From Candidatus Hermodarchaeota archaeon (lineage in GTDB: Archaea; Asgardarchaeota; Thorarchaeia; Thorarchaeales; Thorarchaeaceae): DNA of 64,000 nucleotides. The notes beneath the pieces were generated by a model. It searched no databases, had not been told where the DNA came from, and was given only the letters and a program-made list of their open reading frames with translations. Within the stretch, counting starts at the first letter, position 1. Each line of letters begins with the position of its first letter. The stretch spans positions 32,001-96,000 of the forward strand of contig JBHLLF010000004.1 of assembly GCA_048885865.1 (NCBI GenBank), read 5' to 3'. Positions 11,946 to 36,733 of this stretch are shown piece by piece. The position numbers were made by a program, and so were the translations under genes.

Positions 11946-12659
11946 ATGCTGAAGCCATTTCTAGTTTTCAGGTGTTCGAAGTGCAGGAATTTCACTAATG
12001 CACCTGCAGGTCAGAAGAAACGTCGCTGCAGCTATTGCGGACATATAATCGACATCTCGAAAGCAGCGTGTGCCTTGTTCGATACTCCAGAAAAAGCGTC
12101 AACTGCTGTGAAGAAATTCAATGCTTCAAGGGGTGGTGACTCTTTTCTGAAGGCTGTTGAAGCAAGCAAAGAGAGAGTAAGAGGTCTTCTTCCTCCTGAG
12201 AAACTCAGCATGAAGGACGTGATTGACAAGTCAGAGGAGGAAATACCATCTGGTAAGTCGAAGAGATTGCTAGAACTCCTAAAGAGAGAGGCTAGTGATA
12301 GTGCGTGCTCGCTAGACACAATAGCTGAACTCTGCCCCGATTATCAGTTGGACTGGTTGTGGGTAGAAGACCAGCTCAATAAGCTGTCAAATCAAGGCAC
12401 CTTGATATTTCCAAGACCTTGGACTGTTCAGTTGGTCGGTGTTCCGTCAAAGGAGAAAACCAAGCCCTCCTTAGTGGATGTGACAAAAGAGATTGTGGAT
12501 TGGATTCAAAGGAAGGGCGGAGAAACTGAATTAGATGATGTTGTGGAGCATTTTGAAGAACTTGGAATCCCCAAGGAATCAGTTGAGGCTTCACTTGATC
12601 GTCTGATGAATCAGGGTGTGATTTACCTGCCGAAAGCAGGACTCATAGGGTTGGTGTAA
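11946..12659 (+). CDS. DUF1922-like Zn-ribbon protein with two winged-helix repeats
   Basis: CSKC...CSYCG ribbon; repeats LNKLSNQGTLIFPRPWTVQLV and LDRLMNQGVIYLPKAGLIGLV. Confidence 0.7.
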   Translation: MLKPFLVFRCSKCRNFTNAPAGQKKRRCSYCGHIIDISKAACALFDTPEKASTAVKKFNASRGGDSFLKAVEASKERVRGLLPPEKLSMKDVIDKSEEEIPSGKSKRLLELLKREASDSACSLDTIAELCPDYQLDWLWVEDQLNKLSNQGTLIFPRPWTVQLVGVPSKEKTKPSLVDVTKEIVDWIQRKGGETELDDVVEHFEELGIPKESVEASLDRLMNQGVIYLPKAGLIGLV

Positions 12660-12670
12660 AGGGCGATTCA

Positions 12671-13096
12671 TTGAATAGCGTTGAATTCATCTGGAATGTG
12701 AGGAGAATGCCTGTTGTAGAGATAGTAGCAAAGAAGGCGTTACAGAATAACCCAGATCTCGACCTTGAAGTTGTTGATCTCATTGTCCTTCTCTGGCTAT
12801 TCTCCAATCCCTATGACAGCAAAAGAAGACAGCTCAGCAGTATGCGAACCGTACTAAAGATGTGTGAAACGTTTCAGACACCTGGGAAAGGCATTGTCCT
12901 AACGGATTCAGAACTCACTCAAATTGTCCTCGCAAGCCTTCAGAAATTGAGGGCGAGGAATCTCGTATATGTGAGGTCAGCTGGAATACATTATATTAAG
13001 GCGACAATGACTGAGAAAGGAATCGACCTTGTTAAGAGCTCGATAAATACGCCGGTTCTAAGGCGCGTCACTGCCGAGTTTGGTGATAATCCTTAG
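12671..13096 (+). CDS. Hypothetical protein, probable winged-helix fold
   Basis: SLQKLRARNLVYV...ATMTEKG wing pattern; start could be 12707. Confidence 0.6.
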   Translation: MNSVEFIWNVRRMPVVEIVAKKALQNNPDLDLEVVDLIVLLWLFSNPYDSKRRQLSSMRTVLKMCETFQTPGKGIVLTDSELTQIVLASLQKLRARNLVYVRSAGIHYIKATMTEKGIDLVKSSINTPVLRRVTAEFGDNP

Positions 13097-13149
13097 CAAA
13101 AGAATTGCCTCGTTTCGCAACGTTTAAATGCAGACTTCACCCGGCGAAC

Positions 13150-13333
13150 GCCAGTCGCTCTTAGGACGACTGTTTCAGAGCCGATGGATTCAGTGCAGGC
13201 CTCTAGTTCTGCGCGCAGAGTTAGCCTGCAGACGTGTGCCGGTTGGTTCTGGAGTGGTAGTTGAGCGTGTGACATCTTAGCACCTTGAACCAAAGCAGGC
13301 TAAGAGTAGTTAGAGCACTGGAAGTGAGCCGAT
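13150..13333 (+). ncRNA. Structured 5' leader of the rpl22 ribosomal operon (candidate r-leader)
   Basis: TATA-like TTTAAATG at 13123-13130; helices 13152-57/13167-72, 13174-84/13243-53, 13194-200/13224-30 with inner stem, 13275-81/13299-305. Confidence 0.6.
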
Positions 13334-13798
13334 ATGCCAACATATGGATACTCGATCATAGGCATTGATCCGGATAGGACCGCAGTGGCGAGTGGAAGAA
13401 ACATAAGATGTTCTCCAAAGCAAAGCAGAGAAGTCTGCAATGCCATCAGAGGCATGATGCTAGATAGAGCCATCGACCTATTAGAAAGAGTAGGCGAGGA
13501 GAAAGAATGGATTCCTTATAGACGCCACAAGAAGAAACGGGGACACCACTCTGGGATGAAGAAGTGGGGCCCAGGTGGTCATCCGGTAAAGGCATCTGAG
13601 AACATCCTGAGAGTTTTGAAGAATGCGGAAGCGAATGCTGATGCAAAGGGATTGGACATTGACAGACTCAGGATAGCCCATGCAGCTGCGCATAGAGGCC
13701 GCACTTACAAGAAGTACATTGAGAGGGCGTTTGGGCGAAGCACCCCATATTTCGAAAACACTACACACATTGAGATTGTATTGGAGGAAGTAGCATAA
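13334..13798 (+). CDS. rpl22: 50S ribosomal protein uL22
   Basis: SPKQSREVCNAIRGM, YIERAFGRSTPY, THIEIVLEE. Confidence 0.97.
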   Translation: MPTYGYSIIGIDPDRTAVASGRNIRCSPKQSREVCNAIRGMMLDRAIDLLERVGEEKEWIPYRRHKKKRGHHSGMKKWGPGGHPVKASENILRVLKNAEANADAKGLDIDRLRIAHAAAHRGRTYKKYIERAFGRSTPYFENTTHIEIVLEEVA

Positions 13799-20961: not shown

Positions 20962-21651
20962 GTGATGAGTAGTAGTCGAAGAAGAAATCGAAGGCCTCCA
21001 CGAAGACAAGAGGTCAATCCCCTTGATGATTGGGTTCCTAAGACCGCCTTAGGAAATCTAGTCAAAGAAGGCCACATCAATAGCATAGAGGAGGTTTTCC
21101 TGAACAACTACATCATCCGTGAACCGGAGATTGTCGACATGTTGATTCCAGACCTCCGTCAAGAAGTTGTTGATGTCTCAATGGTCCAGAGACAATCAGA
21201 TAGCGGTCAGCAGAAGAGCTTTAGAATCACCGTAGTCGTAGGGAACGGCGAGGGAGTCATTGGCATTGGAATAGGTAAGGCTGCGGAATTCGTTCCAGCA
21301 GTTCGTGCGGCAGAAGCTAGGGCAAAACTGAATGCAACAATCTTCCGTAGAGGTTGTGGCTCCTGGGAATGCAGGTGTCACGATCCTCACAGCATCCCCT
21401 TCCAGACAAAAGGCGAGTCTGGCTCTGTCAGCGTGACTCTCAGACCTGCACCCAAAGGAACGGGTCTTGTGACGGCAGATGTCGGCAAGATGGTTCTCAG
21501 AATTGCCGGGCTAAAGGATGTTTGGTCAATCACAAAGGGGCGAACAAGGACAGCATCAAACTTTGCAAAGGCGTACGTTGATGCCCTTACAGAAACCTAC
21601 AGAATGCTACCTCCTCAGGAGTGGGCAGCATCAGGAGTGGCTGAAGAATGA
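20962..21651 (+). CDS. rps5: 30S ribosomal protein uS5
   Basis: WVPKTALG, RRGCGSWEC, LRPAPKGTGL. Confidence 0.97.
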   Translation: MMSSSRRRNRRPPRRQEVNPLDDWVPKTALGNLVKEGHINSIEEVFLNNYIIREPEIVDMLIPDLRQEVVDVSMVQRQSDSGQQKSFRITVVVGNGEGVIGIGIGKAAEFVPAVRAAEARAKLNATIFRRGCGSWECRCHDPHSIPFQTKGESGSVSVTLRPAPKGTGLVTADVGKMVLRIAGLKDVWSITKGRTRTASNFAKAYVDALTETYRMLPPQEWAASGVAEE

Positions 21652-22130
21652 GTTCAGAAGAGAAGGTCATTCTAGCGATACGGGTGAGAGGACAAGTCAG
21701 AGTACGACCTCAAATAGAAGACACTCTAGACAAGCTCCTGCTTGGTAGACTGCACCAGGCTAGAGTGTTGAAACTCACGCCAAGCTTGCAAGGAATGATA
21801 ACGAAGGCAAAAGACTACATCACGTGGGGTGAGATTGACGAGGAAACCATCTTGTCCCTTCTCACGAAACGCGGCCGTCTGCCTGGAAACAAAAGGCTTA
21901 GTGAGGAATATCTAAGAAAGAACTCGAGCTACCGCACATTCAAATCACTTGCCAAGGCCATAGTTGAAGGAAAGGCAAGTATGAGCGATGTTGAGGGGCT
22001 AAAACCTGTGTTTAGACTCACTCCGCCCCGCAAGGGCTTCAAGGGAAAGAAGAATCTCCCAGTTGGAATGGGTGGAATAACTGGATATCGTGGTGCTGAA
22101 ATAAATCAGCTCGCTAGTAAGATGATCTGA
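21648..22130 (+). CDS. rpl30: 50S ribosomal protein uL30
   Basis: AIRVRG, DYITWGE, FRLTPPRKGF, GYRGAEIN. Confidence 0.97.
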   Translation: MSSEEKVILAIRVRGQVRVRPQIEDTLDKLLLGRLHQARVLKLTPSLQGMITKAKDYITWGEIDEETILSLLTKRGRLPGNKRLSEEYLRKNSSYRTFKSLAKAIVEGKASMSDVEGLKPVFRLTPPRKGFKGKKNLPVGMGGITGYRGAEINQLASKMI

Positions 22131-22131
22131 G

Positions 22132-22683
22132 GTGAAATGGTTGAGTTGGGATGATGACCCGTTTGATGAGGATCCTCGAAAGAAACTGAGGAAGTGGTTT
22201 GGAGAGTTCCTCCCTGAGGAGATATTCGATCAGATTGATGAGATGATGCGCCGAATGATGGAGGAGATGGACGGGGGAACCCTATTTGACATGGACTCCA
22301 TCGAGGAATTTATGAGAGAAAACCCAGAGGGCACCAATCCATTCACCTTTGGTTTCTCAATCCGTCCTGGTCCTGATGGAAGACCAATTATCCAGAGGTT
22401 TGGAAATGCGCCGGATCCAGACGGTCATGGAATGACGCCTCAGCTCGAGCCATTAGTGGACGTCATTGACGAGGATGGCGAAATCATTGTGGTAGCTGAG
22501 CTACCTGGAGTTGAAAAGGACCAACTGAAAGTTCGGGTCAAGGGCAAGACCTTGACGATTGACGTGGACAATCCACAGAGGCCATATCACAAGGAGATAA
22601 GCCTCCCGGCGAAAGTCCGTAAAGAAGAAGCAAAATCATCAATGAGGAACGGAGTCCTCGAAGTGCGACTGAAGAAGGATTAG
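22132..22683 (+). CDS. hsp20: Small heat-shock protein (archaeal Hsp20 family)
   Basis: FGFSIRPGPDGRPIIQRFGN, EPLVDV, VVAELPGVEK, NGVLEV alpha-crystallin motifs. Confidence 0.93.
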   Translation: MKWLSWDDDPFDEDPRKKLRKWFGEFLPEEIFDQIDEMMRRMMEEMDGGTLFDMDSIEEFMRENPEGTNPFTFGFSIRPGPDGRPIIQRFGNAPDPDGHGMTPQLEPLVDVIDEDGEIIVVAELPGVEKDQLKVRVKGKTLTIDVDNPQRPYHKEISLPAKVRKEEAKSSMRNGVLEVRLKKD

Positions 22684-22697
22684 CGGAGAGAATTGTC

Positions 22698-23147
22698 ATG
22701 CAGAAACGAAAAACCAAGAAGATTCACAAAATGCGCGGACGCCGAGCGGCTGGTTACGGCTTTAGTGCTGGTCATCGAGCTTCAGGTCAAAGAGGCGGCA
22801 AGGGCATGGCAGGCTCCAAGAAACATCATTACATCAAAGTAATGCAGGAGGATCCTCGTTACTTCGGGAAATGGGGGTTCAAGAGACCCCAGATGCTCAT
22901 CAAGGACATGGTAACCCTCAATATAGGCGATATAGATGAGGCCCTTGATAGGCTCGTTGAACGTGGAGGGGCCATAAAGAAAGGCCGCAAATACACCGTG
23001 GATCTCTCACTCCTCGGTATAGACAAAATACTGGGATCCGGCAAAGTGACTCGTGCAATTGATTTGGTTGGAGTGAAGGCAATCTCCGCTCGAGCTCGAG
23101 AAAAGATCGAGGCGAATGGTGGTTCTGTCGACCTGCCTATGGAGTAG
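22698..23147 (+). CDS. rpl15: 50S ribosomal protein uL15
   Basis: RGGKGMAGSKKH, FGKWGF, KILGSG, AREKIEANGG. Confidence 0.97.
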   Translation: MQKRKTKKIHKMRGRRAAGYGFSAGHRASGQRGGKGMAGSKKHHYIKVMQEDPRYFGKWGFKRPQMLIKDMVTLNIGDIDEALDRLVERGGAIKKGRKYTVDLSLLGIDKILGSGKVTRAIDLVGVKAISARAREKIEANGGSVDLPME

Positions 23148-23555: not shown

Positions 23556-25067
23556 TTGACGTCTACATTCCTAAGGGCATTATCACCTTTTGTCCGGATA
23601 ATGCCAGAAGTGAAGACTCCAGATCGAGAGGTATCGTTCAGAGAGAAGGCTGTCTGGACCATCGTAATCCTGATACTCTTCCTTCTAATGAGCCACATTC
23701 CTCTCTACGGAGTGGACAAGACAGTTGGAACTGACTATCTATGGGCACTGCGAGTCATCCTCGCAAGCACACGTGGTACCCTGATGGAGTTAGGAATTGG
23801 ACCGATTGTCACTGCAGGACTGGTGATGCAGCTGCTCTCAGGGTCAAAAATCATCGATGTTGACTTTGGAGATCCTGATGACAGAGCCCTATTCACTGGT
23901 GGTCAGAAAGTCCTAGCTATGTTCATGACTGCGTTTCAGGCAATTGCCTACATTGTCGGTAACGCATATGGTGAACTAGCTCCTGAGGCTTCAGTGATTG
24001 TATTCATGCAGCTGTTCGTTGCAGGAATCGTTGTCATCCTCATGGACGAACTCGTCCAGAAGGGGTGGGGGCTTGGCTCTGGTGTGTCACTGTTCATCAT
24101 GACCAATGTTGCAGGCCAAGTGATGTTCAATGCATTGAACTTCATTGACGTCGAGTCCGTTGGACCAGATCCTCTTTCACCAGTGGGCACTAATCTGCCA
24201 AAAGGTATCATCGCAGCACTGATTGGGAATCTGCTGAGATGGATAGGCATCGGTAGAGACGCTGGTGACCCTGTCGGATGGGACTGGCTAATGTTCAGGG
24301 ATGGACTCACGCCAAGCATATTCACCCTTATCATTACAGTAGTCATCATGTTGGCTGTCATCTGGATGGAAACTGTCAGAGTTGAGATACCACTCCAGTA
24401 TGCCAAGTATAGAGGCATGAAAGCGAGATATCCCATCAAGTTGCTCTATACTTCGAATATTCCAGTCATTCTGGCTCAAGCATTGTTTGCGAACATTCTG
24501 TTCTTCGGACAGATCATCTTCACGAATTTCAATTCGAATGGAACTAACCCGTTCCTGAACCTCATTGGCACATTTAGTCAAGATCCAAATAGTGCTAGAA
24601 TGATAGCGGAATTTGGGCTGAGTCGCTATGTGACGCCTCCTCAAGGACTGTTCGCACTATTTGGTCCAGATGCGCCGCCGGATGGATTGCTGCATGTCGC
24701 GATCTATTCCTTCCTGATGATCCTCCTTTGTTGGGGCTTCTCCAAGATATGGGTGGACATCTCAGGAATTGCCCCTCGCGATGTTTCTCGACAGCTCCTA
24801 AACTCGGGCTACATCGTACCCGGCTTCAGGAGAAGTGAGAAGGTCTTGGAGAGACTGCTTGAGCGCTACATTCCAATTGTAGCCAGTTTGGGCGGGTTCC
24901 TTGTAGGAGTCCTCGCAGCAGCTGCAGATGTTATGGGTGCACTGGCAAGCGGGACTGGAATCCTGCTAATGGTATCAATCATAAAACAGTACTATGAGCA
25001 GATAGCCAAGGAGCAATTGGCCCAAATGGGCGGTGAAGGAATCCAGGGATTGCTTGGAATCATTTGA
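23556..25067 (+). CDS. secY: Preprotein translocase SecY/Sec61alpha
   Basis: RGTLMELGIGPIVTAG, DELVQKGWGLGSGVSLFI, YPIKLLYTSNIPVIL, SGTGILL. Confidence 0.98.
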   Translation: MTSTFLRALSPFVRIMPEVKTPDREVSFREKAVWTIVILILFLLMSHIPLYGVDKTVGTDYLWALRVILASTRGTLMELGIGPIVTAGLVMQLLSGSKIIDVDFGDPDDRALFTGGQKVLAMFMTAFQAIAYIVGNAYGELAPEASVIVFMQLFVAGIVVILMDELVQKGWGLGSGVSLFIMTNVAGQVMFNALNFIDVESVGPDPLSPVGTNLPKGIIAALIGNLLRWIGIGRDAGDPVGWDWLMFRDGLTPSIFTLIITVVIMLAVIWMETVRVEIPLQYAKYRGMKARYPIKLLYTSNIPVILAQALFANILFFGQIIFTNFNSNGTNPFLNLIGTFSQDPNSARMIAEFGLSRYVTPPQGLFALFGPDAPPDGLLHVAIYSFLMILLCWGFSKIWVDISGIAPRDVSRQLLNSGYIVPGFRRSEKVLERLLERYIPIVASLGGFLVGVLAAAADVMGALASGTGILLMVSIIKQYYEQIAKEQLAQMGGEGIQGLLGII

Positions 25068-31419: not shown

Positions 31420-31777
31420 AAGTGGCTCTGGAGCGAAAGAGCGACTGACGGTACTTGTCCTCGGACAAGAGCTGAGGAAGTTCCCGACTGCAAGTCGACA
31501 CCGGTCCCGTTGACGCGGGGAGGTGAGAACCTCGCTCTGGAAACAGAAACGAAACCCCCAGGTCAGATTCGACAATGATGCAGCAATTCAAGCTGTTGAG
31601 GACTGGTCTGGATTGGTTGAAACGGTCCATCACCGGGCAGCAATCTCAAGATTTTGCCGTTGATTGTCGACAGGAGGCAAAGGGTAGAGAGCTTAGTCTG
31701 ATGTCGCAAGACTCCAACTTGGCGACGAGATGGAGTGGAACAGAATCGGGGCTATTCTTCGGACCAGAGCCACGCTT
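31420..31777 (+). ncRNA. rnpB: RNase P RNA (archaeal, probably type A)
   Basis: P1 GTGGCTCTGG (31422-31) / CCAGAGCCAC (31764-73); P3 CTTGTCC/GGACAAG; CR-I GAGGAAGTTCCCG; ACAGAAAC; TGAAAC; CR-V AACAGAATCGGGGCTA; TATA-like TTTTTATG ~25 nt upstream. Confidence 0.92.
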
Positions 31778-36613: not shown

Positions 36614-36733
36614 TGGCGCCGAGGATGAGATTTGAACTCATGCCTCCTATTGGAGAACAGCTGTCTATACGACAATCATAAGACGACTGTGGGTTCCAGG
36701 CTGTCGCCGTGAACCGGGCTTGGCTACCTCGGC
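36614..36733 (-). tRNA. tRNA-Ser(GGA) with 31-nt intron at 37/38 and encoded CCA
   Basis: Acceptor GCCGAGG/CCTCGGC, discriminator G + CCA; anticodon stem ACAGC/GCTGT with CT-GGA-A; long variable arm; T-loop TTCAAAT; intron 36663-36693. Confidence 0.93.

Follow-up and report, generated by a model that had tools for sequence, protein, structure and literature searches.

At this locus an operon of ribosomal protein genes is preceded by an unusually long stretch of non-coding DNA. Within the 64,000-nt stretch of DNA analysed (the window), a spacer of 237 nt (13097-13333) extends from the stop codon of the upstream gene to the uL22 ATG at 13334. The ORF map gave spacers of only 0-15 nt inside the operon, so the exceptional length attributed to this spacer by the initial annotation was real. 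The genes for uS3, uL29 and RNase P protein 1 follow uL22 (Pfam and NCBIfam matches), and tightly packed ORFs continue to about position 23147, with a further 503-aa ORF at 23556-25067. By order and size, we take the later ORFs to be the usual r-protein and SecY genes. A 183-aa ORF (22132-22683, plus strand) lies inside the operon between the ORFs 21648-22130 and 22698-23147. The spacer had been proposed to contain an undescribed Asgard r-leader, a riboswitch or a co-transcribed non-coding RNA. This proposal was supported by the analysis; which of the three applies we infer.

The ORFs in the spacer, one of 50 aa at 13128-13280 and others on the minus strand, are not coding, since they are disrupted by indels of 1-2 nt among close relatives. 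No tRNA was found in the spacer. When the spacer was searched by BLASTN against 40 related genomes, 22 of the 24 that belong to the same family gave matches. Different genera shared 76-83% identity over about 13150-13270, which is high for non-coding DNA. In the alignment the loops were invariant and the stems variable, the TATA box was near-invariant and the Shine-Dalgarno sequence was conserved. The features are listed below in window coordinates.

13123..13130, plus strand: TATA box (TTTAAATG) of the uL22-operon promoter; TTAAAT near-invariant in the alignment
13153, plus strand: predicted transcription start, +/- 3 nt, from the usual archaeal TATA spacing
13156..13160, plus strand: 5' strand of the closing helix H0 (CGCUC), paired with 13263-13267 in the minimum free energy (MFE) fold
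13167..13184, plus strand: 5' strand of the 18-bp long stem H1; two-sided changes that preserve pairing at 14 of its 18 pairs
13185..13193, plus strand: 5' side of the internal loop, U-GG and then A-N-N-C-A-G (model-found sequences)
13194..13200, plus strand: 5' strand of the 7-bp stem H3 (UGCAGGC), backed by covariation
13201..13223, plus strand: 5' bulge (CUCUA), H4 (GUUCUG/CAGAGU) and apical loop, with the conserved motif UUCUGCKCGC
13224..13230, plus strand: 3' strand of H3 (GCCUGCA), backed by covariation
13231..13241, plus strand: 3' side of the internal loop, N-ACGUGUG and then CC-G (model-found sequences)
13243..13260, plus strand: 3' strand of H1, with many G-U pairs, backed by covariation
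13263..13267, plus strand: 3' strand of H0 (GAGCG), from the MFE fold and flank permutations
13275..13305, plus strand: hairpin H5 (UCUUAGC ... GCUAAGA), fixed in position and variable in sequence
13320..13327, plus strand: Shine-Dalgarno sequence GGAAGUGA, 6 nt 5' of the start codon, present in nearly all loci
13334..13798, plus strand: uL22, first gene of the operon (Pfam Ribosomal_L22, E 5e-30)

RNAalifold and our own helix tests showed the core, 13156-13267, to be a single long and irregular hairpin of about 115 nt. From base to tip it consists of the closing helix, the long stem, an internal loop, a second stem, a bulge and an apical hairpin. The MFE fold of 13153-13270 reproduced the covariation structure exactly. 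Its energy was -46.5 kcal/mol on the plus strand and -28.6 kcal/mol on the minus strand, which is less stable because the plus-strand fold contains many G-U pairs; the strand assignment made earlier from these pairs was therefore correct. The z-score of the core against shuffles was -2.27, while that of the whole spacer was just -0.11, so thermodynamics alone would not flag the element. The verdict that the structure exceeds chance was reached from the conservation and covariation across genera, which were decisive.

With a covariance model derived from 20 sequences, 38 copies from 16 genera were gathered and aligned. Covariation among these relatives was strong: 19 of 34 pairs changed on both sides, in 79 cells as against 17.8 after shuffling, and none of 500 shuffles reached this value. 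Paired cells amounted to 87%, compared with 32-46% when the partners were slid. A structure-blind MAFFT alignment still gave 17 pairs and 63 cells with changes on both sides, and agreed on the covariation of H1. After genome and metagenome records were added, the enlarged set of 98 copies (75 distinct) contained 121 cells with two-sided changes; shuffles gave 18-27 across the alignments, and again 0 of 500 reached the observed number. Two-sided change thus exceeded all 500 shuffles on three alignments, with 17-19 pairs involved. The closing helix was assessed separately through its flanks at 36 loci. Flanks from the same locus paired with a mean of -9.6 kcal/mol and flanks from different loci with -8.0 kcal/mol, a difference that none of 2000 permutations reached; compensated variants such as CACUCUC/GAGAGUG and ACCCUC/GAGGGU were present. 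Compensatory substitutions mark the helices, while the loops stay frozen, with about 30 loop and loop-adjacent bases invariant across the 16 genera. We regard the existence and structure of the leader RNA as close to certain.

The initial annotation had described four independent helices; the sequences are better described by one long rod followed by one variable hairpin. Of the helices named there, TTCAGAGCCGA/TTGGTTCTGGA proved to be the upper part of the 18-bp stem, with covariation. The enclosed TGCAGGC/GCCTGCA corresponds to H3, in which 99% of cells were paired and 3-4 of the 7 pairs changed on both sides by exchange of G-C for A-U. The innermost helix, CTAGTTCTG/CAGAGTTAG, is present in this genus but does not hold for the others: the pairing register of H4 is shifted there by one base, and a 5-bp helix GUUCU/AGAAC stands beneath the same conserved apical loop. 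The hairpin TCTTAGC/GCTAAGA (13275-13281 / 13299-13305) was recovered at the same place in the MFE fold of nearly all 27 leaders folded, with unrelated sequences.

The internal loop has the overall motif GGAnnCAG / ACGUGUGCC and includes a mini-helix U-GG/CC-G between 13185-13187 and 13239-13241. Among the 38 model-found sequences, GGA and CAG were invariant on the 5' side; on the 3' side ACG-UGCC was invariant and the intervening bases were nearly so. In the same set UUCU of the apical motif UUCUGCKCGC was invariant and the adjoining GC-CGC nearly invariant. The most divergent genus (loci L065-L067) reads ACGUUUGCC in the main internal loop and carries a second exact ACGUGUGCC in the variable hairpin, about 45-55 nt past the rod. 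This second copy may be a duplicate recognition sequence or may be due to chance.

One copy per genome was found with the covariance model in 80 of 85 genomes of the Thorarchaeota family; the five genomes without a match are 60-88% complete. A phylum-wide sample gave the same picture, with the element in all 26 genomes belonging to this family and no model match in 124 genomes of 26 other Asgard families. The sister family (G025) and other Asgard genomes gave no match even with the filters off. The single sister-family genome also has a long spacer of 248 nt, in which only the stretch UUCUAAGCUCGCGC recalls the apical loop. An exact three-part pattern retrieved 57 records from a collection of genomes from 185,579 species; all records with a lineage in the title were Thorarchaeota or Promethearchaeota, and the remainder were titled just 'archaeon'. 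The lineage is Thorarchaeota, in line with the initial annotation, and a new structured RNA family restricted to it is well supported.

The position of the element relative to uL22 is strictly kept. The gene was directly downstream in all 20 loci fetched, and its ATG lay 66-86 nt past the model match in 38 of 38 copies and in 93 of the 98 copies of the enlarged set, the other five being cut by the ends of contigs or loci. The linkage was also kept where the upstream gene differs or is inverted. In this order the classical r-protein cluster is broken up, with uS19 separated from uL22. The two genes lie more than 1 Mb apart in a complete genome of the same genus (G004; 1.26-1.32 Mb versus 2.405 Mb, with two uS19 copies); elsewhere they are found on different contigs, as in the genome analysed here (uS19 at C45:3-134, L151). 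In two other Asgard families uS19 directly precedes uL22 and the element is absent. The element thus stands at a lineage-specific new operon start.

No known RNA family accounted for the spacer, as had been anticipated. Rfam 15 at gathering scores matched nothing in the window except RNase P RNA and a tRNA elsewhere, and with E values up to 10 the region 12900-13500 gave two chance-level matches only, both within the uL22 coding region. No earlier description of this leader was found in the literature searched. The archaeal RNase P RNA scored 162.6 bits at 31429-31766 (plus strand). The tRNA (36617-36733, minus strand; 117 nt), which escaped ARAGORN, has 33 inserted nucleotides in the anticodon region and a second insert, of 12 nt, beyond it.

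Many r-leaders, though not all, mimic rRNA, and mimicry had also been suggested for this one. It was not found by alignment, motif or covariance-model searches. Smith-Waterman comparison of the core with three 23S, one 16S and two 5S rRNAs of the family gave scores no better than shuffles. A recurring 10/12 match, GACGGGUGCCCG, was rejected because it is the 5' strand of a hairpin in 23S rRNA, with opposite topology. Motif and two-strand pattern searches in rRNA gave nothing consistent; structural mimicry lies beyond these methods. When the rRNA loci were searched with the covariance model in local mode, a single weak match (E 0.018) resulted, outside and antisense to the 23S gene. The 16S match of one family member (L025, G024) spans 2411 nt for a model of 1478 positions and the 23S match of another (L023, G019) 3413 nt for 2987 positions, which suggests large insertions such as introns.

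Two likenesses to 5S rRNA were followed up. Positions 13263-13274 match nt 89-100 of the organism's own 5S rRNA (L034) in 11 of 12 bases, and the apical hairpin CU-GCGCGC-AG (13206-13221) resembles the 5S loop-D hairpin CU-GCGCG-AG. Neither was significant, as a fraction of 0.13-0.88 of shuffles reached the score, and the 11/12 match was not kept in three other leader/5S pairs tested. ORFs of the operon are presumably, by gene order, those of the 5S-neighbouring proteins uL5, uL18 and uL30.

Several known RNA structures were also tried and rejected. An H/ACA guide sRNA, a class defined by an ANA box 14-16 nt from the pocket top and by a K-turn or K-loop in its upper stem, does not fit: on inspection, the loop top lies about 23 nt from the stem end, counting the loop strand and the 11-bp stem, no ACA follows, and the upper stem has no tandem G-A. 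A K-turn of the L7Ae/eL30 type, which would require a 3-nt bulge and then tandem sheared G-A pairs kept in all members, can on inspection be read as UCU-GA / GA above the closing helix in some genera only; in this genus and several others GA is replaced by GG, AG or AA. Inspection for a bulge-helix-bulge or a T-box stem I found the defining features absent.

The TATA-like box noted at 13123, where the sequence reads TTTAAAT, was confirmed as near-invariant and at a fixed spacing to the RNA across 38 related loci. It is directly preceded by a BRE-like CGCAAYG. From its start to the start of the covariance-model match (window 13165) the distance was 42-45 nt in 37 of the 38 loci and 40 nt in one. 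The centre of an archaeal TATA box usually lies near -26/-27 relative to the transcription start, and the start predicted on this basis falls 2-3 nt 5' of the closing helix here and 1-2 nt 5' of it in other genera. A start adjoining the uL22 ATG appears unlikely, because the only conserved TATA box lies about 210 nt 5' of the ATG and its spacing to the folded RNA is constant. The hairpin begins about 30 nt past this promoter. When the leader sequences were examined by eye, neither a conserved second TATA-like box nor a conserved T-run was seen between the rod and the ATG, so that co-transcription of the leader with uL22 would be expected.

The Shine-Dalgarno sequence showed no conserved pairing with the rod, and its pairing probability in the leader folds was mostly 0.3-0.6. 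Its sequestration by the rod was rejected: a UUUCAG/CUGGAA pairing is possible in this genus and has no covariation in others.

By analogy with known systems, the best-precedented and most likely explanation is an autogenous r-protein leader. The element lies in a predicted 5' untranslated region before an r-protein operon and has a covariation-backed structure, and passages in two sources (PMC3616713; PMC7247131) describe r-leaders as typically narrow in phylogenetic range and placed ahead of the first gene. The variable helices, the roughly 30 frozen bases, the single copy per genome and the constant placement ahead of a ribosomal operon's first gene fit a specific binding site for a macromolecule on a cis-acting leader. 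The frozen loops would be bound by a protein, most plausibly an r-protein encoded downstream. When in excess over rRNA, this protein would bind the leader and expression of the operon would be lowered, a feedback of the type known from r-protein leaders in bacteria. More than 20 candidate ligands are encoded downstream, among them uL22, uS3, uL29 and the r-proteins assigned by gene order to the later ORFs, and the MarR-like protein encoded upstream is a further candidate binder. No expression platform was visible, and no conserved pairing occludes the Shine-Dalgarno sequence. With 70-85 nt between the site and the Shine-Dalgarno sequence, and no pairing of the two, repression would have to be exerted from afar: the protein might alter the stability of the transcript, affect elongation or termination, or induce refolding. 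The 5' segment GUCG(CUC) can pair with CGAC or with the 3' closing strand and might act as a toggle. The rod probably also protects the 5' end of the long mRNA, since hardly any sequence is predicted to extend 5' of the closing helix. A regulatory role of the leader has about even odds, and the fuller claim of a lineage-specific cis-acting leader RNA of the Thorarchaeota uL22 operon, exerting autogenous r-protein control through a candidate ligand, could in our estimate equally well prove right or wrong.

Protection of the 5' end might also be the whole function. The rod would then be a structural cap whose base-paired terminus guards the very long polycistronic mRNA against decay that depends on the 5' end, or an element that aids elongation, acting as nascent RNA on RNA polymerase or its factors so that all of the roughly 25 genes are transcribed, and no r-protein ligand would be involved. 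A start predicted 1-3 nt 5' of the closing helix at a fixed distance from the TATA box, the stability of the rod (-46.5 kcal/mol), a Shine-Dalgarno sequence not conservedly paired with the rod, so that translation is not obviously gated, and the failure to see by eye a T-run terminator past the rod are all consistent with this. The ompA and aprE leaders are bacterial 5'-terminal stabilising stem-loops, in which a helix is near-flush with the 5' end of a highly expressed mRNA. The predicted overhang of 1-3 nt is similar, but these leaders need no conserved loop: simple protection requires a helix alone and not about 30 bases invariant across 16 genera. We know of no archaeal precedent for an RNA antitermination element, which speaks against the elongation variant, and the start site is a predicted one. 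On balance we consider this explanation unlikely, at a level that still warrants attention.

An independent or processed small RNA acting in trans, with ribosome assembly or RNA processing as conceivable roles, was judged to be distinctly unlikely. The rod would then be excised from the leader or persist as a stable 5' fragment, and the promoter would serve to supply growth-coupled expression. The single copy and the housekeeping-like conservation of the loops, a size and rod shape compatible with a stable RNA, a closing helix that joins the 5' and 3' ends, and the RNase P protein 1 gene in the same operon would suit such an RNA. It would, however, have neither a terminator nor a promoter of its own, and the strictly fixed distance to the uL22 ATG would be needless for a free-standing gene. 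The loops had no consistent antisense complementarity to rRNA targets, and the sub-motifs recurred elsewhere in the genome at chance level only.

The first helix of the initial annotation, CAGTCG/CGACTG, bears on a third group of explanations. Its complementarity was confirmed, with some covariation and 74.5% of cells paired, but it competes with the better-supported combination of H0 and the base of H1, the latter being 92% paired. In one clade GUCG is changed to GCUG together with CGAC to CAGC and GAGCG to GAGCA, which fits both pairings. The MFE fold flips to CAGUCG/CGACUG when downstream sequence is added, and the helix is lost in the most divergent genus. It may represent an alternative state or a co-transcriptional intermediate. 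If the two competing, co-varying pairings of the 5' segment formed a toggle, the rod could be a signal-responsive switch or an element acting on RNA polymerase that sets the output of the operon from uL22 to SecY; we regard this as a long shot. Still less probable is a riboswitch-like sensor in which a small molecule, ion or tRNA would be the ligand of the loops and the competing 5' pairings would do the switching. The two mutually exclusive GUCG/CGAC pairings, each with compensatory changes, and the flip of the fold would fit a sensor, but the rod has no multi-helix junction or pseudoknot pocket, and neither a conserved terminator nor a helix sequestering the Shine-Dalgarno sequence was found that could serve as a platform. 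The loss of the first helix in the most divergent genus also tells against it, and that helix may be a mere folding intermediate.

The gene upstream of the leader (window 12707-13096, plus strand) probably starts at ATG 12707, which is preceded by the Shine-Dalgarno sequence GAGGAG, and not at TTG 12671. The resulting protein of 129 aa had no Pfam or NCBIfam match. Its AlphaFold model (pLDDT 82.5) gave weak MarR/winged-helix matches (Foldseek E ~0.01, TM ~0.5), so that the protein, judged from the model, may bind DNA and act as a regulator next to the promoter of the ribosomal operon. The gene adjoins the leader in 87 of 98 loci and is also present at this place in the sister family. Just 5' of it, a 237-aa protein is encoded at 11946-12659 (plus strand), whose N-terminus matches a DUF1922-type zinc ribbon and whose C-terminus matches a winged-helix domain (DUF5817_CT, PaaX, MCM C-terminus), in each case weakly and below cut-off. 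A DNA-level operator for the MarR-like protein or another transcription factor, with an incidental RNA fold, is highly improbable: the synteny and the weak resemblance of the 129-aa model to MarR-type winged-helix repressors speak for it, but the compensatory changes, the G-U pairs and the plus-strand advantage of 18 kcal/mol indicate selection on RNA rather than on duplex DNA, the element is 3' of the predicted start, and it persists in loci where the 129-aa gene was not found adjoining.

Autogenous control by an r-protein, the preferred explanation, has both archaeal and bacterial parallels. The L1 operon of Methanococcus is under autogenous translational control by L1, whose binding site, near the start codon, is small and mimics the L1 site of 23S rRNA. 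The Thorarchaeota leader differs in being a rod of 115 nt that lies 70-85 nt 5' of the Shine-Dalgarno sequence and has no detectable mimicry. The uL4-binding leader of the S10 operon of E. coli is likewise a long structured leader before an operon with uL22 and uS3; it is confined to a narrow range of lineages and mediates feedback by a protein of the operon. It differs from the element described here, which has no Rfam match and no terminator hairpin and occurs in another domain of life. Furthermore, uL4 was not found among the genes downstream of the Thorarchaeota leader; the cluster that usually holds uL4 ends in uS19, which is unlinked from uL22 here. Narrow range and feedback are also part of the general picture of r-leaders given in a passage of PMC3616713.

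Candidate archaeal r-leaders were reported by Eckert and Weinberg in 2020 for S15 (Halobacteria, Methanomicrobia), eL15 and L4 (PMC7247131). Like the Thorarchaeota leader, they are supported by covariation, lie 5' of archaeal r-protein genes and have inferred ligands (PMC7247131). None of them precedes uL22 and none is from Asgard archaea; L22, uL22 and Asgard are not mentioned there (PMC7247131). The S15 and eL15 motifs show rRNA mimicry (PMC7247131), in contrast to the Thorarchaeota leader, in which none was found.

The motif is suitable for RNA family databases, from which the element could be annotated in Thorarchaeota genomes. A search for the ligand is feasible with recombinant proteins and a transcript of 180 nt, and requires no culturing. 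If the rod were a switch or acted on RNA polymerase, it would be without precedent in archaea as a growth-rate sensor or antitermination RNA of this kind. The balancing of r-proteins and rRNA in archaea is known from few cases, and none was found described for Asgard archaea, which among prokaryotes are most closely related to eukaryotes. In the Thorarchaeota the element arose where the ancestral gene cluster broke, between uS19 and uL22, and a defined RNA with frozen loops before the largest ribosomal operon provides a concrete and unusually well-supported handle on this balance.
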